Origin: an uncultured Candidatus Saccharibacteria bacterium
GTDB lineage: Bacteria > Patescibacteriota > Minisyncoccia > Phycocordibacterales > UBA9973
Assembly: GCA_964602465.1 (NCBI GenBank)
Contig: CAZRQQ010000002.1
Location: forward strand, 1 to 56,400
Length of the DNA: 56,400 bases
Reading direction: 5' to 3'
Below, in pieces: positions 16,827 through 56,400 of this stretch. The first letter of the stretch is position 1. The number at the start of each line of letters is the position of its first letter. Both the position numbers and the translations under genes were made by a program. A model generated the notes under the pieces. The model worked only from the letters and a program-made list of their open reading frames with translations, was not told the origin of the DNA and searched no databases.

Positions 16827-17354
16827 ATGGAACTCATCAAGTCACAACAAGATAGCGCATACAAGACTCTCGGGTACAAGACCAAGCTTGCGGCACCGCG
16901 ACTCACCAAGATCGTGATCGCAAGTGGTACCGGTACTGGGATGAAGAAAGACCGCAACAAAAACGAAGCGATCATGGATCGTCTTACGAAGATCACTGGC
17001 CAGCGTCCAACCGTTCGTGCAGCAAAGAAATCAGTCGCATCATTTAAGGTTCGTCAAGGTGACCCGATCGGTGTTGCAGTAACCCTTCGCGGCGCACGCA
17101 TGTACCATTTCCTCGATAAACTCATCCACATTGCAATTCCTCGCACTAAGGACTTCCGTGGTATCGACCCTAAAGTTGTCGACACGATCGGCAACCTTAC
17201 GCTCGGCATCAAGGAGCACACGATCTTCCCAGAAACGTCTGACGAAGATCTCAAGGATGTGTTTGGATTTGCCATCACACTTGTCTCAACTGCAAAAGGC
17301 AAAGACGAAGCACTCAAATTCTTCACCCACCTCGGTATTCCGTTTAAGAAGTAA
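16827..17354 (+). CDS. rplE: 50S ribosomal protein L5
   Basis: L5 signature and position. Confidence 0.93.
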   Translation: MELIKSQQDSAYKTLGYKTKLAAPRLTKIVIASGTGTGMKKDRNKNEAIMDRLTKITGQRPTVRAAKKSVASFKVRQGDPIGVAVTLRGARMYHFLDKLIHIAIPRTKDFRGIDPKVVDTIGNLTLGIKEHTIFPETSDEDLKDVFGFAITLVSTAKGKDEALKFFTHLGIPFKK

Positions 17355-17365
17355 TACTACAAAAT

Positions 17366-17397
17366 AAAAATCACTCAATCGAGTGATTTTTATTTTT
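17366..17397 (+). terminator. rho-independent terminator after rplE
   Basis: aaaatcactc-aatc-gagtgatttt followed by a T-run. Confidence 0.65.
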
Positions 17398-17514
17398 TCC
17401 ACATCACGAGTAGGTGATTGGTGATAGCATGCTATACTATTCAGTATATTTTTGTACTGAGATATCCACTACTTTCTCTACTACACTATTTGTGTTGCGT
17501 GATATACTTTCAAG

Positions 17515-20055
17515 GTGAAATCTTTTAGTAGTTTTTTTAGTACACACAAACGAACACTTGCTGCACTTTTGTTTGGCCTCGCGTTTTCGGCGACTGTTGC
17601 GTTTGCAGTACCACCGAGTACTGAGTACAGTCCAGGCGAGACACTTGATCCAAACTGTGCGCCAGGAGATACCAACTGCGCGGTCATTCCCACCGCGTCT
17701 GCGATCGAAGATGGTGCAGTAGAAATCGCTGACTTTTCGGCAAGCGGCACACCGAGTGCAAGTACGTTTTTGCGTGGAGATAACACATGGGCAACTGTTT
17801 CGGGGAGCGGTACAGTCACGTCATTTGCATTTACCAACGGTGGCGGATTCACTGGCAACGTCAGCAACGCCACCTCAACTCCTACGCTCTCGCTTACACT
17901 TCAAGATGCTGTAGCTGATGGCTCAACTAAGGGTGCTGCAGCATTTACCGCAGCAGATTTTAATGCATCAAGTGGGCTCATTTCTATAGACTATACCAAC
18001 GGTCAGGCAGCATCAGGTTCGACCAAGGGATTCCTTACTTCTGCTGACTGGACGACGTTTAACGGTAAGGAAAGTGCACTCACGTTTTCTATTGGACTTA
18101 CACGTACTACTAATACAATCACCGTTAACACTACACAAAACATTGCCAAACTTTCAAACCTTACTTCAAACGGCTTTATTAAGACATCGGGGAGTGACGG
18201 TACGCTCAGTGTTGATACCAGTACCTATCTTACAGGTAACGAGGCTATTACTCTTTCGGGGGATATATCTGGGAGTGGTACTACCACAATCACAACTACG
18301 ATTGGATCTGGTAAAGTCACGAACACTATGCTTGCTGGCTCGATCACTGCAGCAAAACTCGTAGGAACCGATATTGCAACAGTGGGTACTATCGGTACGG
18401 GTACGTGGCAAGGCACGGTCGTGGGTGCAACCTACGGAGGTACTGGTGTAAACAATGGGTCAAACACGATAACACTTGCGGGCAATCTCGTGACGACTGG
18501 GGCGTTTAATACTACGTTTGCAGCAAGCGCGACGGGGACCTATACTCTCCCTAGTGCGACTTCGACGCTTTTGGCAAACAATCTCGGGATTAGTGGCGGG
18601 TCAACACTGGTCGGAGGAACAGGATCTGGTGAAAACCTCACACTTTCTTCAACGAGTAATGCAACTAAAGGTAAAATCATCTTCGGATCTGCCTCAGCGT
18701 ATGACCAAGTCAACGATCGATTTGGAATTGCACAGACCACCCCATTAGCAAGACTTCATGTGCAGCGTGATGCAATAGGTGCCACCCAAGATGATTCATA
18801 CGGTATCTTGTTGCAAAACTCAACGGCAGCAGCAGCGGGCGCACAGCAGTATTCACCATCGATCGTATTTGCAGGAAATGGATGGAAATCAAGTGCAACT
18901 GCAGCGAGTCAAGATGTACGGTTTCGTATTTATAATAGTCCTGTGCAAGGTGCGGGCTCCGCATCCGGGTTGTTGAATTTTGAGTCAGCACTTAATGGTG
19001 GTGCATACACCACGCTCATGACACTATCAAGTGCACAAGCATTGAGCTTAAACAGTGCCGGAACGATTTTTATTGGATCAGGTCTGGCTTTGACTAATGT
19101 TACCGCTCAAGTACCAACTGTATTTGGTGGCACTGCGGTGAGCTCATCACTTACACTTAAATCAACGAGCGGTGTCGGATCTTCGGACTTCATCCGTTTT
19201 CAGGTCGGCAACAACGGTGCAACTGAAGCAATGCGTATCATCACTTCTGGATTTGTGGGTATTGCCAATACTGCTCCTGGAGTCGCACTCCACATCGGTT
19301 CGTCGTCAACCACTGACGCTACAACACTTCTTCGTCTCCAAGACTCAAACTCTACCTGTAACTTCACTGCAGATTCTGGTGCGCCAACGTGTGGATCTGA
19401 CCGCACCCTCAAGAAAGATATCGAATCCATGGATAATGCCGACCTCCTTGCTCGGGTATCTGCACTCAATCCAGTGACCTATCGATGGCTTACTGATACT
19501 GATGATGCAAAACTCCAGCATGGGTTCATTGCACAAGAAGTAGAAGAACAATTCCCGGAGCTTGTGACCGAGAATGTCTGGGGTGATGGCACCATGCGCA
19601 AATTCCTCAATATTGGCGGTCTCATGCCGTATGCGATCGGTGCGATCAAGCAAATGAATCTCCAGATCGTTGGCATTGCAGATCTAGGCACAACCAACAC
19701 TTGGCGTGATAGCTTACTTGCATGGTTTGGAAATGCAGGCAACGGCATAGAGTCTTTCTTTAGTAAGAAGGTTACGACGAGCGAGCTTTGTGTAGGGGAC
19801 GAGACTGATCAGGTTTGTGTCACCAAAGATCAGCTTCGAACACTCTTGCAGCAGGGGGGAAGTGCATCAGTTGCGCCAATAGTGATTCCAGATCCAGTGC
19901 CAGAGGAGGCTACCGGAGAGACGCCTGAGGAGACACCGGTCGAAGAGACTGTGACCCCAGAACCAGAGGCTATAGAACCTACACCAGAGCCAGAACCGGC
20001 TCCAGAACCCACAGCCCCTGAGGCTCCGGCAGAAGCTCCTGCTCTTACCGAATAA
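17515..20055 (+). CDS. secreted tail-fibre-like surface protein with C-terminal intramolecular chaperone (peptidase S74-type) domain and Pro/Glu/Thr-rich tail
   Basis: N-terminal signal/anchor MKSF...AFSATVAFA. Long Gly/Ser/Thr-rich repetitive body. C-terminal TCGSDRTLKKDIESM...LNPVTYRW....HGFIAQEVEEQFPELV matches the endosialidase/tail-fibre autoprocessing chaperone domain. PEPEPAPEP tail. Confidence 0.7.
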   Translation: MKSFSSFFSTHKRTLAALLFGLAFSATVAFAVPPSTEYSPGETLDPNCAPGDTNCAVIPTASAIEDGAVEIADFSASGTPSASTFLRGDNTWATVSGSGTVTSFAFTNGGGFTGNVSNATSTPTLSLTLQDAVADGSTKGAAAFTAADFNASSGLISIDYTNGQAASGSTKGFLTSADWTTFNGKESALTFSIGLTRTTNTITVNTTQNIAKLSNLTSNGFIKTSGSDGTLSVDTSTYLTGNEAITLSGDISGSGTTTITTTIGSGKVTNTMLAGSITAAKLVGTDIATVGTIGTGTWQGTVVGATYGGTGVNNGSNTITLAGNLVTTGAFNTTFAASATGTYTLPSATSTLLANNLGISGGSTLVGGTGSGENLTLSSTSNATKGKIIFGSASAYDQVNDRFGIAQTTPLARLHVQRDAIGATQDDSYGILLQNSTAAAAGAQQYSPSIVFAGNGWKSSATAASQDVRFRIYNSPVQGAGSASGLLNFESALNGGAYTTLMTLSSAQALSLNSAGTIFIGSGLALTNVTAQVPTVFGGTAVSSSLTLKSTSGVGSSDFIRFQVGNNGATEAMRIITSGFVGIANTAPGVALHIGSSSTTDATTLLRLQDSNSTCNFTADSGAPTCGSDRTLKKDIESMDNADLLARVSALNPVTYRWLTDTDDAKLQHGFIAQEVEEQFPELVTENVWGDGTMRKFLNIGGLMPYAIGAIKQMNLQIVGIADLGTTNTWRDSLLAWFGNAGNGIESFFSKKVTTSELCVGDETDQVCVTKDQLRTLLQQGGSASVAPIVIPDPVPEEATGETPEETPVEETVTPEPEAIEPTPEPEPAPEPTAPEAPAEAPALTE

Positions 20056-20134
20056 CCCGGAAGTGAGCCTTGTGGCATAGTACTCCGTACAGACGCGGCT
20101 TCGTCGCAATGCCAAGATCTACTTCCGGGTTGAC
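20055..20134 (+). repeat. structured 80-nt repeat element, copy 2
   Basis: Direct repeat of 13900-13977 with a 2-nt insertion. The inner hairpin change gccgc to gtcgc keeps pairing through a G·U. Confidence 0.8.
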
Positions 20135-20158
20135 TCCGGGCGCATACTCTGATAGGAT
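20130..20158 (+). promoter_or_regulatory. promoter TTGACT-17-TAGGAT for rpsN segment, overlapping the repeat's end
   Basis: Same arrangement as copy 1. Confidence 0.4.
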
Positions 20159-20261
20159 AGGCGAGTCCTTTGGTAATCCGCACTTTTCTCTCTGAGCGAA
20201 CCTTTGTAAGGAAATTCAGAGAAATCAGTACGCGATATTCCAGAGAACATCCACAAATAGT

Positions 20262-20447
20262 ATGGCAAAGACCTCAACAGTCGTGCGCTCCCAAAAGGCG
20301 CCAAAATTTAGCACTCGACAAGTCAACCGCTGCTTCCGCTGCGGTCGTCGTCATGGCTACATGCGCGATTTCGGACTTTGCCGTATCTGCTTCCGTGAAC
20401 TTGCCAACGACGGCATGATCCCGGGTATTCGAAAGTCTTCTTGGTAA
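20262..20447 (+). CDS. rpsN: 30S ribosomal protein S14 (zinc-binding type Z)
   Basis: 61 aa with [20 protein letters not shown]. Confidence 0.9.
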
Positions 20448-20457
20448 TGAGTTTTCT

Positions 20458-20853
20458 ATGGTAACCGATCCTATTTCAAACATGATCATCTCGATGAAAA
20501 ACGGCGCACTGGTGTCCAAGGGCACCGTGGTTATTCCGTTTTCAAAGCTCAAGTACGCGATTGCGCAGTGTCTCAAAGACAATGGCTACATCGCTGAAGT
20601 GTCCAAGAAAACTGAAAAGAAAAATGTGCCAGTACTTGAGATCGAGCTCGCGTACAATGGTGGTGCGTCGCGCATCCATGATGTAAAGCGCATATCAAAG
20701 CCTTCACGCCGCACCTACCTCGGTGTGCACGATATTCACTCTGTGAAAAACGGTCACGGCATGATGGTGCTTTCTACTCCGAAGGGCATTCTTTCTGACA
20801 AGCAAGCGCGCAAGGAGCAGGTCGGCGGAGAAGCGTTGTTTATGATTTGGTAA
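20458..20853 (+). CDS. rpsH: 30S ribosomal protein S8
   Basis: DPI...I..I.N motif at the N-terminus. Confidence 0.93.
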   Translation: MVTDPISNMIISMKNGALVSKGTVVIPFSKLKYAIAQCLKDNGYIAEVSKKTEKKNVPVLEIELAYNGGASRIHDVKRISKPSRRTYLGVHDIHSVKNGHGMMVLSTPKGILSDKQARKEQVGGEALFMIW

Positions 20854-28748: not shown

Positions 28749-28857
28749 GTATGTATGTTTTAACTACTAATCTACAAAATGCCTGCGGATCGACTGTTTC
28801 TACGGAGCTCTTTTGTGCAGTGATTCTGTCAGAAATAATACAAAATGTCAAATAATT

Positions 28858-29251
28858 GTGGAGATGGGGGTATCGAAACCCCGTGTAGTGTGAGTGGATA
28901 GCTAGTTCTACATGTGTAGCGTCATGTGATTGTTTGAGTGAATATTCTCAACACGAGCAAAATGAATATTCACCGAGCTCTTACTTGTTTGGTGCGGGGC
29001 AAAAGCGTGCCTTGCTGCCTATCCCGATGAGTGTTGCCGCGATCTATCTATCGGAAGTCGATAGGTGCGACACCAGATTGACCTAAAGCTTAGGCGAATG
29101 CTGGAGCGAAGCCAAATGCGTTAGCAAATGGAGACTTCACCTTAGCGATGCTGTTGCCAGTTATCGTGTGTGAACGAATGGTGACGGTGTTGCGTTCATA
29201 CCCGACATGCGTAGCTGTCTCAGGCTCATACTATCGAAACCTGTCATCCCC
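28858..29251 (-). ncRNA. ssrA: tmRNA (transfer-messenger RNA)
   Basis: Minus-strand 5' end GGGGAUGACAGGUUUCGAUAG. 3' end ACGGGGUUUCGAUACCCCCAUCUCCAC with the acceptor stem pairing to the 5' end. Internal frame ...GCU AAC GCA UUU GGC UUC GCU CCA GCA UUC GCC UAA. Adjacent to smpB. Confidence 0.75.
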
Positions 29252-35899: not shown

Positions 35900-36034
35900 G
35901 CCGATGATGTATATAATCTTTTATATCATCCACCCTTAGCTCCCCGCCTGCATCAGCTACGCGAAGCATTGCGGGCAGGAGTTGGTAGAGCGCCGAGCTT
36001 ACCGGCGAAGCGAGTGGTATACAGACAAACGAGT

Positions 36035-36108
36035 GGGAGTATAGCTCAGTTGGTTAGAGCACGGAGCTTATACCTCCGCGGTCGATGGTTCGAGTCCATC
36101 TACTCCCA
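36035..36108 (+). tRNA. tRNA-Ile (anticodon UAU)
   Basis: Cloverleaf with acceptor GGGAGTA/TACTCCC, D-arm GCTC..GAGC, anticodon stem CGGAG/CTCCG, loop CTTATAC, T-arm GATGG-TTCGAGT-CCATC. Discriminator A. Confidence 0.7.
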
Positions 36109-36188
36109 CCCGTTTGAATGTGATATCCGAGCGATGCCGGCTCCAAAGGATGACCTCGGTGGTCCAGGCTTTTGTCCATGCACACCCA

Positions 36189-41753: not shown

Positions 41754-43007
41754 TTAATGCATATCCATATCTTCAGTCATATTCATATCAATCTCAATCT
41801 TTTTAAATATCTCTGGGTTTTCATCTCCTGTCACCTCAAGCACAGCCCATGAGCCTTTATTCATTCTTGCTAACGCATGATCTACAAGTAAGTATTTACC
41901 AGGAACATCAACAGTAAACTCTACAATACTTGCACCCCCTGGAAGCACTGCTGTTGTCTGTACATTGCGTTCAATTGAGCCACCAATGTTTGCTTCTGGA
42001 TATACTGTATCGAATATTTCTCCAATCACGTGAAATGATGAGATGAGGTTAACACCGCCATTTCCTATATAGATACGAATCTTGTCTCCAACTTTTGCAG
42101 TTATTCTTGGAGTACTTTCGATTTTACCATTAAAGACGACATAGTTTGGTGTTCCAGCTAAAAGTGCATCTCCATCAAATGGAACAAGTCCTCGTTTTCC
42201 TGTTTTGCCTTCTGTATAAAATTCACCCTGAATCATGTAGAATTCTTTATCTACTTTTGGTAAGGCAATCTTTTGATCTTTTGGATCAACCATAATGAGT
42301 CCGTACTGGCCATGAGAATTGTGTGTACTGACGTTTGGCATAGCACAATGATAAATATACAATCCTGGGTTCAAAGCTTTCCATTGAAATGTCTTAGTCT
42401 CTCCTGGAGCAACATGAGTGATTGATGCTCCACCACCAGGACCGGTCACAGCATGCAGATCAATATTGTGATCATGTAAACTTGTCGGATCGTTAGTTAA
42501 CGATAGCTCAATAGTATCTCCTTCTTTTACTCGTAGCATGGGTCCAGGAACTTGTTTATTGTATGTCCAGTAGTTCATGTATATCCCCGGAGCCATTTCT
42601 GATATAACTTCTTGTGCTCGTAAATGTATGCGAACTATACCATCAGCATCGGGTATTTGCGGTTCACTTGGAACAGAATTCGGGTTGGCGGATATGTCAA
42701 CTATCTTCTCAAAGTTTTTTTCATACATAAAAAACTCTAAAATTTTACTAAAAGGAATAGCAGGTGCAATTCCGCCTGGAGCATGAGAGTGCATAAACAT
42801 TGGCATTGCGAAGTCAGGAGCATATGTACGATTTGATATGAGTCCAGCAAACAGAGCAATCACAAAAAGAGCAACTGGTATGTAAAGCAATTTTTGCTTA
42901 AAAATTGAATGAAAGTGAACCTTTTTCCATATATATCGCACAAGTATGACAAAGGCTATTAACCCAACTATTCCAGATATTATTTCAAAAATGAGATATG
43001 TAAACAT
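41754..43007 (-). CDS. nirK: copper-containing nitrite reductase NirK with N-terminal membrane anchor
   Basis: Type-1/type-2 Cu ligand blocks HDHNIDLHAVTG and YIYHCAMPNVSTHNSHGQYGLIMV match NirK. Two N-terminal TM helices. Confidence 0.8.
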   Translation of the reverse strand: MFTYLIFEIISGIVGLIAFVILVRYIWKKVHFHSIFKQKLLYIPVALFVIALFAGLISNRTYAPDFAMPMFMHSHAPGGIAPAIPFSKILEFFMYEKNFEKIVDISANPNSVPSEPQIPDADGIVRIHLRAQEVISEMAPGIYMNYWTYNKQVPGPMLRVKEGDTIELSLTNDPTSLHDHNIDLHAVTGPGGGASITHVAPGETKTFQWKALNPGLYIYHCAMPNVSTHNSHGQYGLIMVDPKDQKIALPKVDKEFYMIQGEFYTEGKTGKRGLVPFDGDALLAGTPNYVVFNGKIESTPRITAKVGDKIRIYIGNGGVNLISSFHVIGEIFDTVYPEANIGGSIERNVQTTAVLPGGASIVEFTVDVPGKYLLVDHALARMNKGSWAVLEVTGDENPEIFKKIEIDMNMTEDMDMH

Positions 43008-43024
43008 AAAAATTAGTATTTATA

Positions 43025-43396
43025 TTATTTATAAGGTATTTTACAATCCTCAAAACAGTGAGCATCACGGTTCAAGGTGAAATATTTTTCCCGACCAGAC
43101 ACTTTTGCATGTACAGCATTTACTGATTGGAGAACTTTAAGATGATGAGTAATAGTGGGTTGTCTTAGAGACATCTTATTCGTCAATTCTGTAACTGTTT
43201 GACCATTTTTTGATTTACCAAGTATACAAACCAAGTTGTAACGGCTTCTTTCGCCAACAACCTTGAAACAATCTGGACATAATTCCTTTTCGGACATAGA
43301 AGAAATTGGTACCCAGCTTGGGATTGGGTATGTTTTTTCTTGACTTTTATTTTTTATTACAGTCTGATGTATTTTTATATCTTTTTTTGCTTTCAT
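43025..43396 (-). CDS. ArsR/SmtB-family transcriptional regulator
   Basis: Winged-HTH pattern. RYNLVCIL...QTVTELTNKMSLRQPTITHHLKVL. Upstream of nirK in the same orientation. Confidence 0.6.
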   Translation of the reverse strand: MKAKKDIKIHQTVIKNKSQEKTYPIPSWVPISSMSEKELCPDCFKVVGERSRYNLVCILGKSKNGQTVTELTNKMSLRQPTITHHLKVLQSVNAVHAKVSGREKYFTLNRDAHCFEDCKIPYK

Positions 43397-43463
43397 ATAG
43401 ATAAGTATCTATGTTAATATGTATAGACCATTATCAATATAACATAATTAAGAAATAAAAACT

Positions 43464-44759
43464 ATGCCAAACACAGAAAATATTGCATCTTATACTCAAA
43501 ATGTCATCAAACGGGATGGTTCCATCCAGTCTTTTGATACAAAAAAGATAATCCAAGCAATCTACAAGGCGATGCTCTCTGTCGATAAGGGAAGCTTGGA
43601 TGACGCGAGATTTGTTGTCAAAAGTGTACTTCTTGATCTTGAAAAAAATCATGACCCTGAAGAAAAATACCCGAGCGTTGAGAAGATTCAAGATATTGTT
43701 GAGCAAGAATTAATGAAAAAAGAATTCTTTGATGTTGCAAAGTCATATATTCTATATAGACAGCAAAGAGCAGAGATGCGTAAACGTGACATTTTTAAAA
43801 AAAGAACTAATCTAAAGCCTTACGAATATCCCGAACTATATGAATATGTAAGCGCAATACGACATTCATACTGGATTCATACAGAATTTAATTTCACTAG
43901 CGACATACAGGACTTCAAAGTAAATGTAAATGAAAAAGAGAGAAATGCAATAAAAAACGCAATGCTTGCTATCGCGCAGATCGAAGTTACTGTTAAAACA
44001 TTTTGGGGTGATATATATAAAAAAATGCCGAAGCCTGAAATTGGTGCTGTCGGATTTACTTTTGCTGAAAGCGAAGTTAGGCACATGGATGCGTACGCTC
44101 ATTTGCTTGAGATACTTGGATTAAATGAAGAATTTAAAAAAATAAAAGAAATTCCTCCACTTATTGATCGTGTCAGATATCTTGAAAAAGCAATAAAAAA
44201 TTCTCGAAGTGAGGATCCTAGAGAATATGCTCAGGCCATTTTGCTTTTTTCTCTTTTTATTGAACATGTTTCATTATTTTCTCAATTTCTTATTATTATG
44301 TCATTTAATAAACATAGGAATATTTTCAAGGGAATATCAAATGCTGTCGAAGCAACTTCTAAAGAAGAACAAATACACGGGCTCTTTGGTATCGATGTTA
44401 TCAACGTTATAAAGAGTGAGCATCCAGAATGGTTTGATAAAGATTATGAGAATACTATTGTCGAGTCCTGCAAGGAAGCATTCGAATCAGAAAAAAAGGT
44501 TGTTGATTGGATACTTGAAATGGGGGAAATCGATTTTATACCAAAAAATGTAGTGCTTGAATTCGTTAAGAATAGATTTAACAACTCTCTTGCAAGTATC
44601 GGTATCTCTAGAATATTTGAAGTTGATAAAAATCTTTTGGAAAAAACTGATTGGTTTGATGACGAAGTTATTGCAACGAAGCACGGAGATTTCTTCGTGA
44701 AAAGGTCGATTAATTACAATAAGAGAAATCAAAGCGTCACAGGTGACGATTTGTTCTAA
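43464..44759 (+). CDS. nrdB: class I ribonucleotide reductase beta (radical-generating) subunit with N-terminal ATP-cone
   Basis: N-terminal VIKRDGSIQSFDTKKIIQAIYKA (ATP-cone). Ferritin-like di-iron ligand motifs E..H (ESEVRH, EEQIH). Confidence 0.75.
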   Translation: MPNTENIASYTQNVIKRDGSIQSFDTKKIIQAIYKAMLSVDKGSLDDARFVVKSVLLDLEKNHDPEEKYPSVEKIQDIVEQELMKKEFFDVAKSYILYRQQRAEMRKRDIFKKRTNLKPYEYPELYEYVSAIRHSYWIHTEFNFTSDIQDFKVNVNEKERNAIKNAMLAIAQIEVTVKTFWGDIYKKMPKPEIGAVGFTFAESEVRHMDAYAHLLEILGLNEEFKKIKEIPPLIDRVRYLEKAIKNSRSEDPREYAQAILLFSLFIEHVSLFSQFLIIMSFNKHRNIFKGISNAVEATSKEEQIHGLFGIDVINVIKSEHPEWFDKDYENTIVESCKEAFESEKKVVDWILEMGEIDFIPKNVVLEFVKNRFNNSLASIGISRIFEVDKNLLEKTDWFDDEVIATKHGDFFVKRSINYNKRNQSVTGDDLF

Positions 44760-44767
44760 TTAAATAT

Positions 44768-46492
44768 ATGAAATGGCTCAATGAACAGAGTAAATTATTT
44801 TTAGCAAAAGGATATCTCGCAAAAGGAGTAACCGCTGAGGAAAGAATACGTGAGATCGCAAACGTAGCAGAACGTATTCTTAACAAAGAGGGTTTTGCAG
44901 ATAAATTTTATGCATACATGTCAGAGGGATACTATTCTCTCGCATCTCCTGTCTGGTCAAATTTCGGACTAACTAAAGGTTTTCCTATCAGTTGTTTTTC
45001 TTCTTATGTTGGAGATGACATGGGGCAGATACTTTTTACCGAAGCAGAAGTTGGTATGATGAGTAAATATGGCGGAGGTACTGCTGGTTATTTTGGTGAT
45101 CTGCGTCCTCGTGGAGCGAGTATTAAAGATAATGGTATTTCTTCTGGAGCGGTTCATTTTATGAGACTTTTTGAAACAATGGTAAATGTTGTAAGTCAGG
45201 GTTCTGTCAGGCGTGGTCATTTTGCTCCATATCTGCCACTAGAACACAAAGACATTCACGAGTTTTTAGAAATCGGCACAGAAGGAAATCCTATCCAAGA
45301 ATTGACCTATGGTGTTACTGTTACGGATAAATGGCTAAATGATATGATCGATGGAGATCAAGAAAAAAGAGATATTTGGGCGAAAGTATTACAAAGAAGA
45401 AGCCAGATAGGATATCCATATATTTTATTTACTGATACTGTGAACAGAAACACGGTAGATGTTTACAAAGACAAAAATCTAAAGATACACGCAAGTAACT
45501 TATGCTCGGAAATATTACTTCCTTCTAATGAAAATTGGTCAGTTGTTTGTGATCTTTCCTCTATGAATCTTCTTTATTATAATGAATGGAAAGACACAGA
45601 TGCAGTAGAGACACTTGTTTATTTTTTAGATGCAGTAATGAGCGATTTTATTAGTAGATTGGAAGATTTTCGCGACAGTGGAGAAACGCATAAAAAACAA
45701 GCATTTCTTTTCATGGAACGTGCATACAATTTCGCAAAAGCAAACCGAGCACTGGGTCTTGGTGTCCTTGGATGGCACTCTCTTTTGCAAAGCAAAATGA
45801 TTCCTCTTGGAAGTACCGAGGCGAATGATCTTAATAAAGAAATATTTAAAGATCTTCATGATCAGTGCTATGCTGCTTCAGAAAAACTTGCAAAGGAATA
45901 CGGTGAACCAGAAATACTTGTAGGATACGGTAGAAGGAACACGACACTCCTTGCTGTTGCTCCTACAACTTCTTCTGCTTTTATCTTAGGACAAGTATCT
46001 CAGAGTATAGAACCTTTGTGGTCAAACTGTTATGTCAAAGATATTGATAAAATGAAAATCACTATTAAAAACCCTTTACTTGAAAAACTTTTAGAAGAAA
46101 AAGGTCTAAATACCAGAGAGATTTGGCAAGGCATAAGAGAAAATGACGGTTCAGTACAACATCTTTCAGAAATTACAGATAAAGAGAAAGAGATTTTTAA
46201 AACATTTGCTGAGATTGACCAAAAAGTAATTATTGAACAGGCTGCTGAAAGACAAAAATACATAGATCAAGGACAATCGCTTAATCTCATGATCGATCCT
46301 TCAATTCCAGCAAAAGAAGTAAATGCTTTATATCTTCATGCATGGAAGCGTGGTATCAAAACATTTTATTATCAACACAGCATGAATGCTGCTCAGCAGT
46401 TTGGGCGTAAAAAACTTAAAGAAGTTAATTTAAAACAAAAAGAGGTCGATCAAGATGAATCTAAAAATGTATGCATTTCGTGCGAAGCATAA
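44768..46492 (+). CDS. nrdA: class I ribonucleotide reductase alpha subunit (short, no ATP-cone)
   Basis: Active-site NLCSEILLP motif. C-terminal Cys pair (CISC). 574 aa. Confidence 0.8.
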   Translation: MKWLNEQSKLFLAKGYLAKGVTAEERIREIANVAERILNKEGFADKFYAYMSEGYYSLASPVWSNFGLTKGFPISCFSSYVGDDMGQILFTEAEVGMMSKYGGGTAGYFGDLRPRGASIKDNGISSGAVHFMRLFETMVNVVSQGSVRRGHFAPYLPLEHKDIHEFLEIGTEGNPIQELTYGVTVTDKWLNDMIDGDQEKRDIWAKVLQRRSQIGYPYILFTDTVNRNTVDVYKDKNLKIHASNLCSEILLPSNENWSVVCDLSSMNLLYYNEWKDTDAVETLVYFLDAVMSDFISRLEDFRDSGETHKKQAFLFMERAYNFAKANRALGLGVLGWHSLLQSKMIPLGSTEANDLNKEIFKDLHDQCYAASEKLAKEYGEPEILVGYGRRNTTLLAVAPTTSSAFILGQVSQSIEPLWSNCYVKDIDKMKITIKNPLLEKLLEEKGLNTREIWQGIRENDGSVQHLSEITDKEKEIFKTFAEIDQKVIIEQAAERQKYIDQGQSLNLMIDPSIPAKEVNALYLHAWKRGIKTFYYQHSMNAAQQFGRKKLKEVNLKQKEVDQDESKNVCISCEA

Positions 46493-48579: not shown

Positions 48580-51500
48580 ATGGGGCAAACCCGTATGTTT
48601 ATGAACAACCGAAAAGCGCGACAAACACTTCTTACAATCATCTCTACTTTTACGAAAAAGCTAGCGTTATCGACGCTAGCTTTTTCGCTTCTTTTTGGAT
48701 CAGTACCATTTGCATTTGCACAAGAGGTGTCTGAGTCTCAAAATACACCACTAACTGAATCTACAGAAACACCATCATCCACAATACCAACAGGAGATGG
48801 GAGTACTTCTTCAGGGCAATTGCTCCCATCTACAACAGATCAAACCGATACTGTAATTTCTCCTGAAAATATTCAACCCGCAATTGCCCTTGCGGGGCAA
48901 TCCGGGGTCGGTAATGCCGGCACTACTCCAGACAACGATGTGACTGGATTGACACACCAGCAACTCCCTAATGTAAACGATAGTGGTATCCTCTCGTATA
49001 ACTACCCCTTGACCATTGCGCCTGGACGACTAGGACTAACACCCAGTCTTTCGCTTTCTTATAACAACAGAAACCGTGACGACGGCGTCTTTGGTGTTGG
49101 TTGGTCACTTTCTATTCCATACATCGAACGAACCAACAAAAAAGGTATTGATACTACCTATACCGATAACTACTTTAGTTCAAGCCAAGCAGGAGAACTT
49201 GCCCTTGTTTCGGGTACGACGTATGCCCCACGTGTAGAAAATGGTGAATTTTCAAGTTACGATTTCGACGGAACGAAATGGACTGTTGTTGATAAAAAGG
49301 GTGTTACCTATAAATACGGTGTACAAGCTGCAACTCGCCAGGATGACCCGGGTAATGCAAGTAGAGTATATCGATGGTATCTCGAAGAAGTCCGAGATAC
49401 AAACAACAACTACATCACCTATGAATACTACAAAGATGCAGGACAGATTTATCCTTTAAAAATCACATATACAGGTAACGGGGTTACAGCGGGTGTCCTT
49501 ACAGTACATTTTGTCCGAACTGCACGAACAAATCCAATCATTTCATATGCTACTGGTTTTGGGGTAATAACAAACTATCAAATCACAGAAGTTCGTAATG
49601 AAATAAACAGTGTTTGGACGAGAAAGTATACACTCGCATATACGACTGCAGACAATACAAAAAATCTCCTGATCAATACAATCACTGAATCTGGACAGGA
49701 TGAGAGTGCGGTTGTCACAACACTTCCTGCAACTGACTTTGATTACAAAACATCAGATCCGAACTGGACGTATAACTCTACATACAATCTCCCAGAGACC
49801 TTCTATACAACGAGCGGTAAAGATAGAGGGCTTCGTATTGATGACATGACAGGAGACGGCATGGCTGACATTACCTGTCATAATGGCGCCTCAACAGGAA
49901 ACTGCGCCCAAACAGGAGCAATTTCTTGGAAAAACAATGGCGCTGGGTGGACTGCACTAGGACCATGGGATTACCCATCAATGGGAGGTGTACCGTTCAT
50001 GACCACTGAACGATTTACTGATAGCACATATGCAGATGCTGGGCTTCGAATCTTTGATGTAAACGGTGATGGAATGGCCGATTTGGTACGATCTGATGGT
50101 ACGAGTGGGACTGGTCCATATGTCTATCTCGCCAACGGCACAAATGGTTGGACATATTCGTCAACATGGAATTTCCCTCCGATTAACTTTGTAACAAATG
50201 GTGCCGACAATGGTATGCGTATCGCAGACATCAACGGCGACGGCTTGCCAGATGTGGTGTGTGCCGCTCGAGGAAATAGCTGTGCCGGAAATAGTGGAAT
50301 GATCTGGATAAATACAGGATCAGGGTTTGTAGATAAAACAACATCATGGTCAATGCCAAAGATTGGCGGAGATCCACTTGCTCAAAGTGAAGCATTTACC
50401 GACAGTAGTTTCCAAGACCTGTCACTCCGATTGCTCGATGTAAACGGTGACGGACTTGCTGATTTGGTACGAGCATCACAAAGTGCACTTTATACGTATC
50501 TCAATAATGGTGTAAACGGATGGATATATACTGCAAGTTGGAATATGCCGATCCCGTTCTACGACAGTGCAAACAATGATTATGGTGTTCGAATGGCTGA
50601 TATCAATGGTGATAATCTTCCAGATATTCTCTGCCATACTGCAAATGCAGGTGCAAGTAACTGTAGTCAACTAGGTCCTGTGTTTTATATCAACACTGGT
50701 TCAGGTTGGGTAGGAGCAAGTTGGAACTTCCCGAATATCGGTGGCATTGTTACCAATAATACGGAAGCATTTACTTCACCTTCATACCAGGATACCTCAC
50801 TCCGTATTGTTGATATAAACGGTGACGGACTCAGTGACCTGGTACGAGGAGCAGACGGTTTTCTATATACCTATATCAATAACAATAGTGTAAAGGCCGA
50901 TCAGCTTACTAAGATAACCTATCCATCTGGTGGCTCAAGTACTATCACGTACAAACCAGCGCAGTTTTATCGAGACGGATCAAACAATGCGCTCAACCCA
51001 AAACTTCCGATGGTACTTGATGTGGTTTCGCAGATAGTGACCGATGATGCATTTGGTGGTACCGCTCAGACGACAAGCTATACCTATGAAAAAGGGTTAT
51101 ACTACACCGCAGCAGTCAATGATCGAAAGTTTGCAGGATTTAATATTGTCACTAAAACTGACGGTGCAGGTAATATCACAAAAACATACTATCACCAAGC
51201 AGATACCACGGACACCTCACTCGGTGAATACAATGATGAGTTCTCTAAGATCGGAAAAGTGTATCGAGTTGAGCAGTATGATAATGCGGGCAATCTCTAT
51301 CTAGTCACTGTAAACAAATGGGATAAATACAATCAAGCAACCGATCGTGACTTTGTGAAGCTTGCTCGACAAACAACACTTGCCTATGACGGTAATGGAA
51401 CGCACAAGGATACCGCAACGGAGTACACCTATGACAACACGAACGGTTCAATATTAACTCAAACTGAATGGGGCGAAGTGGCTGGAGCGACCGATGGATC

Positions 51501-54500
51501 ATTTAGTGATACAGGAACTGACAAACGTGTGACCACAAATCTATATGCAACCAATGGTACCACCAAAGTTGTCGCTGTCTACAACAGTACTGTTACTGAT
51601 CAGTCGGCAGCAAAAGTACGAGAGGATAAGTACTACTACGATACACTCGCGTATGGCTCAGTATCTAAGGGTAATCAAACTAAGAATGAAAAATGGAAGA
51701 CAGCAAGCACCTATGTCAATACTCAGAAAACATATAATGCAACCTACGGAAATGTTGCAACAGAAACTGACGAACGTGGTAAGGTAACGACCTATACGAC
51801 GTATGATACGTATAATCTGTATCCAATTACTATCACCAATCCGCTCTCACAGACTACGCAATATCTCTATGACTACTCGCTTGGTAAACCAAAACAAGTC
51901 ACCGATCAAAATGGATTTGTCTACAAGACTACCTATGACGGACTCGATCGTGTAAAACTCATTCAAATTCCTGATTTCACTACACCCTACAGCGCTATAA
52001 CGAAAACTTCGTATACGTACACTGATACGTCGGGTGCGGTGCGTATCCAAAAAAGTGATTACCTCGATGGTACTGTGATTGCAGATACCTATCAGTACCT
52101 CGATGGTCTCAATCGCATCATTCAAGAACGCAAGAAGTCAGAAACATCGCCGACCTATAACATCACAAACACGATGTACAACAGTGTTGGATTGGTGCTC
52201 AAGCGTTCAATTCCACACACAGGTACCGGTGCATCACGAAGCACTCCTTCAGCGACAACATATCTCTACATCAACTACACGTATGATCCTCTCCAACGCG
52301 TGCTCACTCAGTCGGATGCGATTGGTACTACAACCTATGCATATGATGACTGGAAGACGACGGTTACCGATCGTAACGGCAAGGTCAAGAAGTACTATAC
52401 CGATGCCTACAATAATCTCATAAAAGTTGATGAGATCAATGGCGCTTCAACGTATACCACCAACTATGAGTGGAACCTCAACGCAAAGCTTACCAAAGTC
52501 ACCGATGCATCAAGCAACATCCGTAACTTCACCTATGACGGTCTCGGCCGACGCCTTACAGCACAAGATCTTCACGCTTCAGCAGATGCGACATTTGGTA
52601 CTTGGACGTATACCTACGATGATGCAGGAAACTTGACCCAGACTATTAGTCCTCGATCGCTCACGACCAATTACACCTACAACGATATCAATCAACAACT
52701 CACCGAAGATACGACTGGTGTGGCAGGAACGGAAATCACGTATACGTATGGCGGTTGCACAAACGGTACTGGAAAACTCTGTACAGTTACAATGACAAGC
52801 GGCGCAAACACGTCATACACATATGATTCAAATGGCAACCTTGCAAGCGAGATCAAGACGGTCAATAGCAATGCGTACACAACGTCATATACCTACGATC
52901 GACAAGGAAATATCGTTACAGTTACTTATCCTGATGGTGCACAAGTAAAATACACCTATAACGTTGAAAATCTCCCTGAAAAGATTGAACGAAAGGAAAG
53001 CGGTGGTGCATTCACAAATGTGATCTCAAACTTCGATTACAACGCAGCAAGCCTCATCACAACCCAAGCCTATCCAAATACTGTTACAACGACAAACACC
53101 TACGATCAGGCGAAGCTCTACAGAATGACTCGTCGTCTGACGCAAAATACAGTACCCACTAAAATGCTCGATCTTAACTACACCTACGATAATGAAGGAA
53201 ATATTACCCAGGTAATTGATTCGTCAAATACAACTACTTCGAAGACTGCTAACTATGCCTATGACGATGTATATCGTATGTTATCGGCAACGATAACGAC
53301 AGTGTCATCAGGAACGACTGCATATACGCACACTTACACGTATGATGCACTCGGCAATATTCTCACAGGTCCAATTGGTACTTACCTCTACCAAGGAAAC
53401 ACAGGAGTGCTCACTGCAAACCCTCATGCGGCAACCTCGATCAATGGGGTCACCTACACGTACGATGCAGATGGTAATCTCACCAGCAACGGTACGCTTG
53501 CAAATACATGGAACTATAAAGACCAGCTCACACAGACTGTAGTCGGAGGTGTAACGATCAACGATTACTATGACCACAACAGTGATCGTGTCTGGCACAA
53601 GGTCGGTACGGCAAACAACTACTATCCAAACAAGTACTACAATGTTGATTCAACAGGAAAGAAGACCAAGCAGATCTACGCAGGCGATCAACTTGTTGCA
53701 ACAGTTGAAACGGTTGGTACTACCGTCACTCCGTACTACAACCATGTTGATCAGGTCAACTCTGTGACTGCGGTGACAAACGGCACAGGCGCATCGGTTG
53801 CAACGCTCGACTACTTCCCGTACGGTAACCAGCGTATCTCAAGTGGTACGTATACTTCACAACGACAGTACATTGGACAGGTTTATGACACCAATGCACA
53901 GCTCAACTATCTCAATGCGCGATATCTCAAATCTAATATTGGAAAGTTCATTAGTGAAGATCCAATGTTCTGGAGTATGACTGATACTGCACTCAGAAAT
54001 CCTCAATATACAAACTCATATTCATATGGAAATAATAATCCGATCACTCTAAGTGATCCAACAGGTAAATGCATCTGGGACGGTTGTATCGCAGAAGGAA
54101 TGCTCCTAGCAGCGGCTACTCAAGCTATTGCACCACTTCTGACGACTGCTTATGTTACTGATTATGTTGGGACACAGTTAAATCCCACTGTTTCTACATC
54201 AGTGAAGTCACAGGCAAATAAGCAAGCTCTAGATGCTCTTGCCTTAGGAGTCGGGATTTCTATAAGTATGCCAAATGCAAACTTCTCTAGGGTAGCTCCA
54301 TCAGTAGCTCCTTCTACGTCTCGAGCATCAGTTCTACAAGCAAACAAAGCAGCTGGTGCTGCATTTGAAACTAGCGAACTAAAAGCTATTACTAAATCAT
54401 TTCCAGTAACTCAAACTCAGTTGACCATCAAAACACCGAGCGGTATTACTACTAGAATGGATATTATAGCTAGAGATTCTTTGGGAAATATTTGTCTATT

Positions 54501-54666
54501 CGAGTGTAAGTCATCTATTACAGCTCCTCTAACAAAAAACCAGTCTCTCGCATTTCCGGAAATACAAAAATCTGGAGGAATGATTATGGGAAATGGTAAG
54601 CCTGGATTTCCTGGCAATACGTTAATCCCTCCTACAAGAGTTAATATATTAAGACCTGTAAAATAA
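48580..54666 (+). CDS. secreted RHS-repeat polymorphic toxin of Tc-toxin BC-like architecture (SpvB-like region, FG-GAP repeats, YD/RHS shell, RHS core with DPxG, variable C-terminal toxin domain)
   Basis: Signal peptide. SpvB-like segment GVFGVGWSLSIPYIERT. Five FG-GAP-like repeats (D(V/I)NGDG.(A/P)D(L/V)V). Many YD repeats (YTYD..GN). RHS core ...ARYLKSNIGKFISEDP. DPTG at 54054-54065 followed by a ~200-aa AT-rich tail. Confidence 0.85.
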   Translation: MGQTRMFMNNRKARQTLLTIISTFTKKLALSTLAFSLLFGSVPFAFAQEVSESQNTPLTESTETPSSTIPTGDGSTSSGQLLPSTTDQTDTVISPENIQPAIALAGQSGVGNAGTTPDNDVTGLTHQQLPNVNDSGILSYNYPLTIAPGRLGLTPSLSLSYNNRNRDDGVFGVGWSLSIPYIERTNKKGIDTTYTDNYFSSSQAGELALVSGTTYAPRVENGEFSSYDFDGTKWTVVDKKGVTYKYGVQAATRQDDPGNASRVYRWYLEEVRDTNNNYITYEYYKDAGQIYPLKITYTGNGVTAGVLTVHFVRTARTNPIISYATGFGVITNYQITEVRNEINSVWTRKYTLAYTTADNTKNLLINTITESGQDESAVVTTLPATDFDYKTSDPNWTYNSTYNLPETFYTTSGKDRGLRIDDMTGDGMADITCHNGASTGNCAQTGAISWKNNGAGWTALGPWDYPSMGGVPFMTTERFTDSTYADAGLRIFDVNGDGMADLVRSDGTSGTGPYVYLANGTNGWTYSSTWNFPPINFVTNGADNGMRIADINGDGLPDVVCAARGNSCAGNSGMIWINTGSGFVDKTTSWSMPKIGGDPLAQSEAFTDSSFQDLSLRLLDVNGDGLADLVRASQSALYTYLNNGVNGWIYTASWNMPIPFYDSANNDYGVRMADINGDNLPDILCHTANAGASNCSQLGPVFYINTGSGWVGASWNFPNIGGIVTNNTEAFTSPSYQDTSLRIVDINGDGLSDLVRGADGFLYTYINNNSVKADQLTKITYPSGGSSTITYKPAQFYRDGSNNALNPKLPMVLDVVSQIVTDDAFGGTAQTTSYTYEKGLYYTAAVNDRKFAGFNIVTKTDGAGNITKTYYHQADTTDTSLGEYNDEFSKIGKVYRVEQYDNAGNLYLVTVNKWDKYNQATDRDFVKLARQTTLAYDGNGTHKDTATEYTYDNTNGSILTQTEWGEVAGATDGSFSDTGTDKRVTTNLYATNGTTKVVAVYNSTVTDQSAAKVREDKYYYDTLAYGSVSKGNQTKNEKWKTASTYVNTQKTYNATYGNVATETDERGKVTTYTTYDTYNLYPITITNPLSQTTQYLYDYSLGKPKQVTDQNGFVYKTTYDGLDRVKLIQIPDFTTPYSAITKTSYTYTDTSGAVRIQKSDYLDGTVIADTYQYLDGLNRIIQERKKSETSPTYNITNTMYNSVGLVLKRSIPHTGTGASRSTPSATTYLYINYTYDPLQRVLTQSDAIGTTTYAYDDWKTTVTDRNGKVKKYYTDAYNNLIKVDEINGASTYTTNYEWNLNAKLTKVTDASSNIRNFTYDGLGRRLTAQDLHASADATFGTWTYTYDDAGNLTQTISPRSLTTNYTYNDINQQLTEDTTGVAGTEITYTYGGCTNGTGKLCTVTMTSGANTSYTYDSNGNLASEIKTVNSNAYTTSYTYDRQGNIVTVTYPDGAQVKYTYNVENLPEKIERKESGGAFTNVISNFDYNAASLITTQAYPNTVTTTNTYDQAKLYRMTRRLTQNTVPTKMLDLNYTYDNEGNITQVIDSSNTTTSKTANYAYDDVYRMLSATITTVSSGTTAYTHTYTYDALGNILTGPIGTYLYQGNTGVLTANPHAATSINGVTYTYDADGNLTSNGTLANTWNYKDQLTQTVVGGVTINDYYDHNSDRVWHKVGTANNYYPNKYYNVDSTGKKTKQIYAGDQLVATVETVGTTVTPYYNHVDQVNSVTAVTNGTGASVATLDYFPYGNQRISSGTYTSQRQYIGQVYDTNAQLNYLNARYLKSNIGKFISEDPMFWSMTDTALRNPQYTNSYSYGNNNPITLSDPTGKCIWDGCIAEGMLLAAATQAIAPLLTTAYVTDYVGTQLNPTVSTSVKSQANKQALDALALGVGISISMPNANFSRVAPSVAPSTSRASVLQANKAAGAAFETSELKAITKSFPVTQTQLTIKTPSGITTRMDIIARDSLGNICLFECKSSITAPLTKNQSLAFPEIQKSGGMIMGNGKPGFPGNTLIPPTRVNILRPVK

Positions 54667-56121: not shown

Positions 56122-56400
56122 AAGATACGACCATTGTAATCCAGAATCAAATTTTAAAATAGGCCATTAATATCTATGCAAAACATATATTTTACTGCAT
56201 GGTCGCGCTCCTACTTAACAAAATCAGTACCCTGCGATAGGGTGTGCAGAATGGTATCTTTTGAGGTATCATTGATTGACAACTAAATAAGCAATAAGAG
56301 GCCTAACCCTTGGGAACACAATGTTTGCAAGGTATGGTCGTAAATCGCGACAAACGTAAAGAACCTATCATTAGGGCGTTTGTCGCGTTATATCTGGAAA

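Follow-up and report, generated by a model that had tools for sequence, protein, structure and literature searches.

The stretch of DNA analysed here (the window, 56,400 nucleotides) carries, between two groups of ribosomal protein genes, a large gene that probably encodes an exported surface fibre related to phage tail fibres. This fibre gene (17515..20055, + strand) is an open reading frame (ORF) with a GTG start and a product of 846 amino acids (aa), recognised by Pfam as carrying an S74 domain and by PHROGs as a tail fibre. Upstream of it, the L24 gene (16571-16816) and rplE, encoding L5 (16827..17354, +; Pfam Ribosomal_L5 and L5_C), close one ribosomal protein unit. Downstream, rpsN, encoding a zinc-ribbon S14 of 61 aa (20262..20447, +; Pfam Ribosomal_S14), opens the next unit, which continues with the genes for S8 (20458-20853) and L6 (20861-21394); L24, S8 and L6 were likewise assigned by Pfam. 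The ORF call and the Pfam neighbours agree with the coordinates and the gene order rplE-fibre-rpsN given in an earlier, model-made reading of the bare sequence (hereafter the original prediction). The identical fibre protein and the complete 56,400-bp contig are already deposited in NCBI and ENA. For the rplE product, identities of 60-81% were found with proteins from metagenome-assembled genomes labelled Paceibacterota, Nomurabacteria or Patescibacteria, and because of these identities we assign the source organism to the class Paceibacteria of the Candidate Phyla Radiation (CPR), in keeping with the small-genome bacterium supposed in the original prediction. The fibre gene has a GC content of 0.49 and a codon usage like that of its neighbours, and is thus native in composition.

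The profile Peptidase_S74 (PF13884) matched residues 628-685 over its entire length (profile positions 1-58), with 61.9 bits against a gathering (GA) cutoff of 22 and an E-value of 7.2e-17. The original prediction had claimed a C-terminal S74 domain and had proposed this kind of profile search as a check, and the strength of the match upholds it; the outcome named there as refuting, the lack of both an S74 profile match and a predicted trimeric beta-helix or fibre fold, did not arise. The intramolecular chaperone/autoprotease domain as a whole extends from residue 628 to about residue 740 (19396..19734, +). Its putative catalytic dyad lies in the motif S628-D-R-T-L-K633, which fits S-D-x-x-x-K; the codon of Ser628 (19396-19398) is exactly the serine codon singled out earlier, and Lys633 is encoded at 19411-19413. 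Both residues are at least 90% conserved among 47 relatives, and the S-x4-K spacing is retained even in P0008, a protein with no stored Pfam match. The segment GSDRTLKKDI aligns with SSDRRIKKDI of the solved chaperone of the phage S16 fibre (6f45). In PHROGs the protein is assigned to tail fibre families 5668 and 1980.

The S74 domain is not the end of the protein. Residues 750-781 (19762..19857, +) form a small additional domain, a beta-hairpin with Cys759 and Cys768 followed by the helix ELCVGDETDQVCVTKDQLRTLL, which was modelled with a predicted local distance difference test (pLDDT) of 83-89. The cysteine pair is at least 90% conserved (alignment A3), and the mini-domain was seen in close homologs and, by pattern search, in 3 of 11 members of the wider family. 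The last 62 residues (785-846; 19867..20052, +) make up an acidic, disordered tail rich in Pro, Glu, Thr and Ala (P17 E16 A9 T8, net charge -17), a composition that confirms the Pro/Glu/Thr-rich tail noted before; acidic tails were present in every family member checked.

At the other end, hydropathy and the A-x-A rule point to a signal peptide or signal-anchor in residues 1-31 (17515..17607, +). The N-terminus, MKSFSSFFSTHKRTLAALLFGLAFSATVAFA followed by VPP, has a basic n-region and an A-x-A site with predicted cleavage between AFA and VPP, and residues 13-35 are the sole hydrophobic stretch of the protein, in line with the N-terminal signal or anchor that had been proposed. Among family members (P0193-P0264, 10 independent sequences) this hydrophobic leader is strongly kept as FFxTHKRTLxALLFGLAFSAxxAYA, followed at the predicted cleavage site by xPP, with the core HKRTLxALLFGLAFSA. 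Ordinary Sec signal peptides are not usually conserved so strongly, which hints at an uncleaved membrane anchor or a dedicated sorting signal. Directly after the leader, residues 32-60 (17608..17694, +) form a Cys-loop module, PPxSxYxPGxTLDPxCAPGDTNCxV, which is conserved in relatives and is a candidate for the docking end of the fibre.

Between these two ends, a module coverage map describes residues 61-600 (17695..19314, +) as a mosaic, beta-rich fibre body. It is rich in Thr, Gly, Ser and Ala, the first three of which the original prediction had named. The same description had called the body repetitive, and this part did not hold: self-BLAST of the protein found no internal repeats, and a Smith-Waterman comparison found one weakly duplicated unit of ∼55 aa (about residues 365-416 and 536-593, z about 3.5). 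We therefore prefer to call the body mosaic and compositionally biased. Its pieces recur elsewhere. A module of ∼65 aa within residues 121-205 (GFLTSADWTTFNGK) occurs with 65-85% identity in many unrelated large proteins, often in tandem; residues 60-125 correspond to a repeat unit of other proteins, with up to 22 tandem copies in one of 3236 aa (P0180); and the blocks 207-331 and 358-555 are each common to other sets of proteins. Two motifs resembling capping loops were recognised in the sequence, RFGIAQTTPLARLHV at residues 402-416 (18718..18762, +) and FVGIANTAPGVALHI at residues 579-593 (19249..19293, +). Both follow the pattern [FV]-G-I-A-x-T-x-P-x-x-x-L-H-[VI], one residue longer than the capping-loop consensus of Bdellovibrio.

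Structure prediction was carried out on the monomer. A focused model of residues 395-785 reached a pLDDT of 73.5, with values of 80-95 in the S74 region and a confidently modelled beta domain at residues 430-510. The entries 3gw6 and 4uw8 took the top ranks in Foldseek. In a fold comparison, the highest score was obtained with the MyRF ICA (7DC3; 7.6), followed by the Bd3182 beta-helix, Bd2439 and the T5 fibre (5.8 each), the endoNF chaperone (5.7), the GA-1 chaperone (5.6), Bd1334 (5.5), and T4 gp34 and Bd2133 (5.1 each). As modelled, the C-terminal region is thus predicted to adopt the fold of the S74 chaperone domain.

The closest full-length relatives of the fibre protein are cellular proteins. 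Their genes adjoin those for TIM and PGK (P0003), UvrD (P0025), or YchF and SecE-NusG (P0132). With the N-terminal 125 aa as the query, 1611 representative proteins were matched. The proteins with the leader module that were tested all carried S74 as well (10 of 10), beginning 200-225 residues from the C-terminus; they are 575-1200 aa long in total and all have an acidic tail. Because N-module and S74 go together in this way, we describe the family as one whose ends are constant and whose shaft varies. In bacteria, 'tail fiber domain-containing protein' is the routine annotation of S74 proteins, among them P0022 from Paceibacterota, and a search of the accessible literature did not find S74 fibres described in Patescibacteria. 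A metagenome scan was dominated by the ubiquitous DWTTFNGK module and yielded no further syntenic locus.

Phages in GenBank matched the S74 segment only, at up to 43% identity (KVP40-type) and within annotated tail fibres, and no match to the shaft was found among deposited phage genomes. Contigs in IMG/VR do contain the shaft modules, and a few combine shaft and S74; those labelled L152, L111 and L112 are real phages, with genes for tape measure, baseplate hub, Erf or endolysin. The original prediction had termed the protein phage-derived. The results fit a narrower wording, namely that it shares modules with phage tail fibres; the gene is native in composition and syntenic in relatives. No phage structural module surrounds the gene, which is flanked by L5 and S14 and whose relatives are syntenic among ribosomal protein genes. 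The genes of the window belong to translation and housekeeping; near the fibre gene, neither further phage genes nor an integrase or att-like repeats were found, and the window holds no paralog of it.

The junction between rplE and rpsN is a site of variable cargo throughout the lineage. In 62 species-level Paceibacteria relatives, counting only contigs that hold both genes, the spacing from rplE to rpsN ranged from 148 to 4258 nt and never fell below 148 nt: it was at most 260 nt in 19, 261-1000 nt in 15, and longer than 1 kb in the other 28. In some genomes the operon is broken, with no rpsN within 10 kb of rplE. The inserts are unrelated to one another: some encode small membrane proteins, ATPases or kinases, others consist of type IV pilin-like genes in arrays or of toxin-antitoxin-like genes. 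No fibre gene was found at the junction in any of 80 loci (L005-L084); it occupies the junction only in the close clade of the window (L001, L002/L003 and L166). There, it is sometimes accompanied by up to three genes for surface proteins. The order is L14-L24-L5-fibre-GDSL protein in L002/L003, large protein-fibre-GDSL protein-S14-S8 in L001, and, in L166, L5, a propeller-like protein of 1161 aa, the fibre, two GDSL/fn3/PG-binding proteins and S14 (islands L002 4003-6237, L001 1-8744 and L166 3463-15753). The companions are large secreted proteins: one is the beta-propeller-like protein of 1161 aa, and one or two others, of 893-1161 aa, carry GDSL/SGNH hydrolase, fn3 and PG_binding_1 domains; the GDSL proteins of L001 and L002 are 62% identical to each other. 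The window itself has the fibre gene alone at this place, with none of the companions. Compared with the window, the ribosomal proteins of this clade are 85-97% identical and the fibres 33-49%, with middle parts that could not be aligned. Since the fibres diverge far more than the flanking ribosomal proteins, we conclude that they undergo fast, mosaic evolution at a fixed locus.

Several signals around the fibre gene bear on its transcription. After rplE lies an intrinsic terminator (17361..17396, +), a perfect 16-bp stem followed by a U-run, with a free energy (dG) of -17 kcal/mol and z = -10.6 (0 of 200 shuffles were equally stable); the hairpin is identical in L002, and a different hairpin with a T-run takes its place in L166. 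An extended -10 element, TGaTATACT (TGATATACT; 17500..17508, +), ends 6 nt upstream of the GTG start. Relatives are arranged alike, with TGATATAAT-ttctag-GTG in L002 and TGGTATAAT-ttcaag-GTG in L166, and L004 has TATACT 9 nt upstream of an ATG. Because the element abuts the start codon here and in relatives, the sequence suggests that the fibre gene is transcribed from a promoter of its own into an mRNA that is leaderless or nearly so. The fibre stop codon is followed by a stem-loop (20054..20131, +) with a perfect 11-bp outer stem (20054-64/20121-31), dG -31.2 kcal/mol and z = -3.4, without a U-run; it is possibly the 3' end or terminator of the fibre mRNA. It is followed by a sigma-70-type promoter for the rpsN unit, TTGACT-17-TAGGAT with a TG (20130..20158, +), and in relatives a conserved TTGAC-N17-TAGTAT precedes rpsN. 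What had been described as a structured repeat downstream of the gene is not a repeat; it comprises the perfect inverted repeat of this 11-bp stem and, behind it, the promoter and a conserved hairpin of the leader. The terminator, the extended -10 and the rpsN promoter and leader argue against co-transcription of the fibre gene with the spc operon. Given the rplE terminator on one side and the rpsN promoter and leader on the other, the gene would form a transcription unit of its own between the L14-L24-L5 and S14-S8-L6 units. The original prediction had placed it inside the spc operon and called the location unusual; this is correct for the gene order, and has to be revised for the transcription unit, as the gene appears to lie between two units at a junction of variable cargo.

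The rpsN leader is itself a structured RNA (20161..20253, +) with two helices and 15 bp. RNAalifold on 36 sequences found compensatory changes in 12 of the 15 pairs. In the alignment, 95.7% of the cells were paired, compared to 75% after shuffling and at most 58% after sliding, and the covariation score was 0.629 versus 0.226 and at most 0.198, respectively. The elements AUC, UUUCUCC, AAGAAAA and GAUAUC are conserved and single-stranded. A covariance model matched the leader of the window with 49.7 bits (E = 6e-9) and, in 67 of 83 Paceibacteria sources, found the leader exactly once at each locus, always on the + strand; the copy stood directly upstream of rpsN wherever rpsN was located. Rfam had no match for the leader or for anything else within 17340-20300, and the leader was not found in a literature search. 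It is a candidate for an autoregulatory site, bound by S8 or S14, of the S14-S8-L6 unit. The ribosomal gene order is that of the E. coli-type spc operon (rplN-rplX-rplE-rpsN-rpsH-...), which is regulated by S8 binding near rplE. Unlike that operon, the one in the Paceibacteria lineage is split between rplE and rpsN by a terminator, 148-4258 nt of cargo, a promoter and the leader RNA.

The nearest counterpart of the fibre among known systems is found in Bdellovibrio bacteriovorus, whose mosaic adhesive trimer (MAT) fibres combine a signal peptide and a conserved N-domain with a mosaic trimer and an S74 domain with SDxxxK (Caulton et al. 2024, PMC10769870). MAT fibres were shown to self-cleave, to sit on the surface of the predator and to bind prey glycans; their N-domain, directly after the signal peptide, is a conserved, beta-rich unit of ∼130 aa, and their capping loops, on the beta-helix, follow the consensus V-G-G/N-pi-x-x-P-x-x-x-L (PMC10769870). 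The window fibre most resembles the S74 subgroup (Bd3182) in its signal peptide, mosaic fibre and terminal S74 domain with SDxxxK. It further shares with MAT fibres a chromosomal gene and the combination of constant ends with variable shafts, and, presumably, judging from the phylum, a bacterium that lives on other bacteria; its conserved N-terminal end and its two capping-loop-like motifs may correspond to the N-domain and capping loops of MAT fibres. It differs in that its constant N-terminal part is a Cys-loop of ∼30 residues followed by repeat modules instead of a ∼130-aa domain, in the extra residue of its capping loops, and in the Cys-hairpin/helix domain and acidic Pro/Glu tail added after S74. 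Its host genome is that of a CPR bacterium and not of a diderm predator, and its surface location and binding are putative.

With phage fibres and tailspikes (K1F endosialidase 3GW6, T5 pb1 4UW8, S16 gp37 6F45, GA-1 gp12 3GUD) it has in common the S74 domain, the Ser/Lys dyad and a similar predicted fold, and also the mosaic mode of evolution, with shaft modules that are common to tail fibres of uncultivated phages. In contrast to these, the gene lies in a cellular chromosome between ribosomal genes and not in a tail module, and the protein has a Sec signal peptide. The fragment predicted to be released is also larger, as the added Cys module and acidic tail bring it to ∼219 aa; the chaperone fragments of phages are about 130-155 aa. 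The myelin regulatory factor MYRF, whose ICA (7DC3) scored highest in the fold comparison, is a membrane-bound transcription factor of eukaryotes, and both its N-terminal part and its biological role are unrelated. The mechanism is already known from phages and Bdellovibrio, and the window fibre extends an existing class and opens no new one.

Taken together, we think it fairly probable that the fibre gene encodes a Sec-exported, homotrimeric, tail-fibre-like and S74-matured surface fibre of Paceibacteria, which is chromosomal and evolves fast. This reading draws on the identity of the domain, the conserved dyad, the similarity of fold, the mosaicism, the synteny and divergence among relatives, the terminator, and the promoter and leader of rpsN. 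By analogy with endosialidase, T5 pb1 and Bdellovibrio Bd3182, we infer that the protein trimerises, is cleaved, stays at the cell surface and binds a ligand. Three chains would be exported, after which their C-terminal S74 domains would trimerise and template the folding of the intertwined shaft. Ser628, activated by Lys633, would then cleave at the Ser-Asp bond, freeing the C-terminal fragment of 219 residues and leaving a mature fibre of ∼600 residues with its distal tip exposed. The constant N-terminal end would keep the fibre on the cell, and the fibre may bind a glycan or a protein on the surface of another cell, which is probably the host. Recognition of a host or partner is plausible on account of the MAT precedent and the presumed episymbiosis.

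A number of points weigh against this interpretation. Its cleavage, surface location and binding steps stand on analogy, and the lifestyle is assumed to be episymbiotic because of the phylum. The Foldseek E-values were ∼1e-2, and the full-length monomer model was poor (pLDDT 51.8), which is expected if the chain belongs to an intertwined trimer. The conservation of the leader could reflect either an uncleaved anchor or a dedicated sorting signal; if the signal peptide is cut and the C-terminal fragment freed, the fibre would be left with no known tether to the cell. Solved phage chaperones lack the Cys module and acidic tail that follow S74 here, and the interpretation does not account for these parts. 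Finally, the window lacks the companion hydrolase genes of the relatives, and no GDSL homolog was found anywhere in it.

Of the alternatives, the one that retains most weight is a secreted, polysaccharide-active enzyme, that is, a trimeric beta-helix like a tailspike or endosialidase which is matured by S74 and acts with the GDSL esterases encoded beside it in relatives to degrade or deacetylate a polysaccharide, such as the capsule or cell wall of a host. The GDSL/SGNH, fn3 and PG_binding_1 companions in L001, L002 and L166 fit such a function, as does the confidently modelled beta domain at residues 430-510, to which no function is assigned. However, Pfam, NCBIfam and PHROGs found no glycosidase, lyase or esterase family in the fibre, the short fibre-type modules that form tandem arrays elsewhere are typical of shafts and not of catalytic beta-helices, and no companion hydrolase accompanies the fibre in the window, so that we regard an enzyme as rather unlikely. 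Similarly improbable, and placed next, is a surface fibre that has nothing to do with a host and serves as an envelope or S-layer-like structure, in cell-cell aggregation, or as a decoy for phages. Strictly, the architecture indicates an exported trimeric fibre and nothing more, and both the modules shared with phages and the fast evolution would also suit an arms race with phages. Against this, the shaft is replaced between genomes whose ribosomal proteins are ∼90% identical, and structural envelope proteins are usually conserved; the nearest functional precedents of S74 fibres with signal peptides are adhesins for prey recognition; and scans with NCBIfam and PADLOC gave nothing meaningful, with no match to a defence-system family.

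The last alternative, a tail fibre gene stranded by a degraded prophage or a recent transfer and functionless for the cell, we consider very unlikely. The PHROG tail fibre matches, the 43% identity of the S74 segment to KVP40-type tail fibres and the occurrence of the modules in IMG/VR phage contigs are what it would predict. It would not predict a native composition and codon usage, an intact ORF with a conserved dyad, surroundings that lack phage genes, integrase and att-like repeats, or a locus that is syntenic in at least four related genomes. A Sec-type signal peptide is not needed by virion fibres, which are assembled in the cytoplasm, and the gene belongs to a family with constant ends whose members also stand at other chromosomal sites. 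In view of the genomic context, the composition, the synteny and the signal peptide, we accordingly discard the idea of a degraded-prophage remnant.

Other features of the window lie away from the fibre locus. At 48580-54666 (+) a protein of 2028 aa carries SpvB, TcdB_toxin_midN, FG-GAP and RHS-repeat domains and is a candidate Rhs/Tc-toxin-like polymorphic toxin. The region 41754-46492 has a low GC content (0.34-0.38, GC3 0.24-0.29, versus ∼0.49 elsewhere) and contains nrdA, a fusion of nrdB with an ATP-cone and, on the minus strand, a multicopper-oxidase-like gene; this block may have been acquired horizontally. A tRNA-Ile gene with anticodon TAT was identified by ARAGORN at 36034-36111 (+), and a tmRNA gene lies at 28856-29251 (-; 86 bits). 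At 56300-56400 (+), a partial match to the LOOT RNA (RF03000) is truncated by the end of the contig and scores 51.7 bits, compared to a gathering score of 46.4.

Little is known of the ways in which ultrasmall CPR/Patescibacteria locate their hosts and keep hold of them, and work so far has centred on the type IV pili of Saccharibacteria. The splitting of the spc operon and the covarying rpsN leader are more unexpected by-products of this analysis than the fibre itself, and may merit a separate study. For the fibre, the locus is fixed between ribosomal genes that are ∼90% identical, which makes it a handy marker for following fibre turnover in metagenomes. A wider proposal, which we put forward tentatively, is that Paceibacteria recognise hosts by a dedicated, undescribed family of S74 fibres with invariant ends (signal/anchor and Cys-loop on one side, S74 and acidic tail on the other) and shafts exchanged with phages. 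In the same proposal, the rplE-rpsN junction would be a lineage-wide 'safe harbour' in which islands for host interaction (fibre, beta-propeller and PG-binding esterases) are kept and turned over, and the freed fragment of 219 aa (S74, Cys module and acidic tail) would serve a second purpose, be it as a tether associated with the wall or as a factor that is secreted. With its constant ends and fast-exchanged shafts, the S74-matured fibre family, a parallel to the MAT adhesins, is a concrete candidate for the means by which Paceibacteria recognise their hosts.

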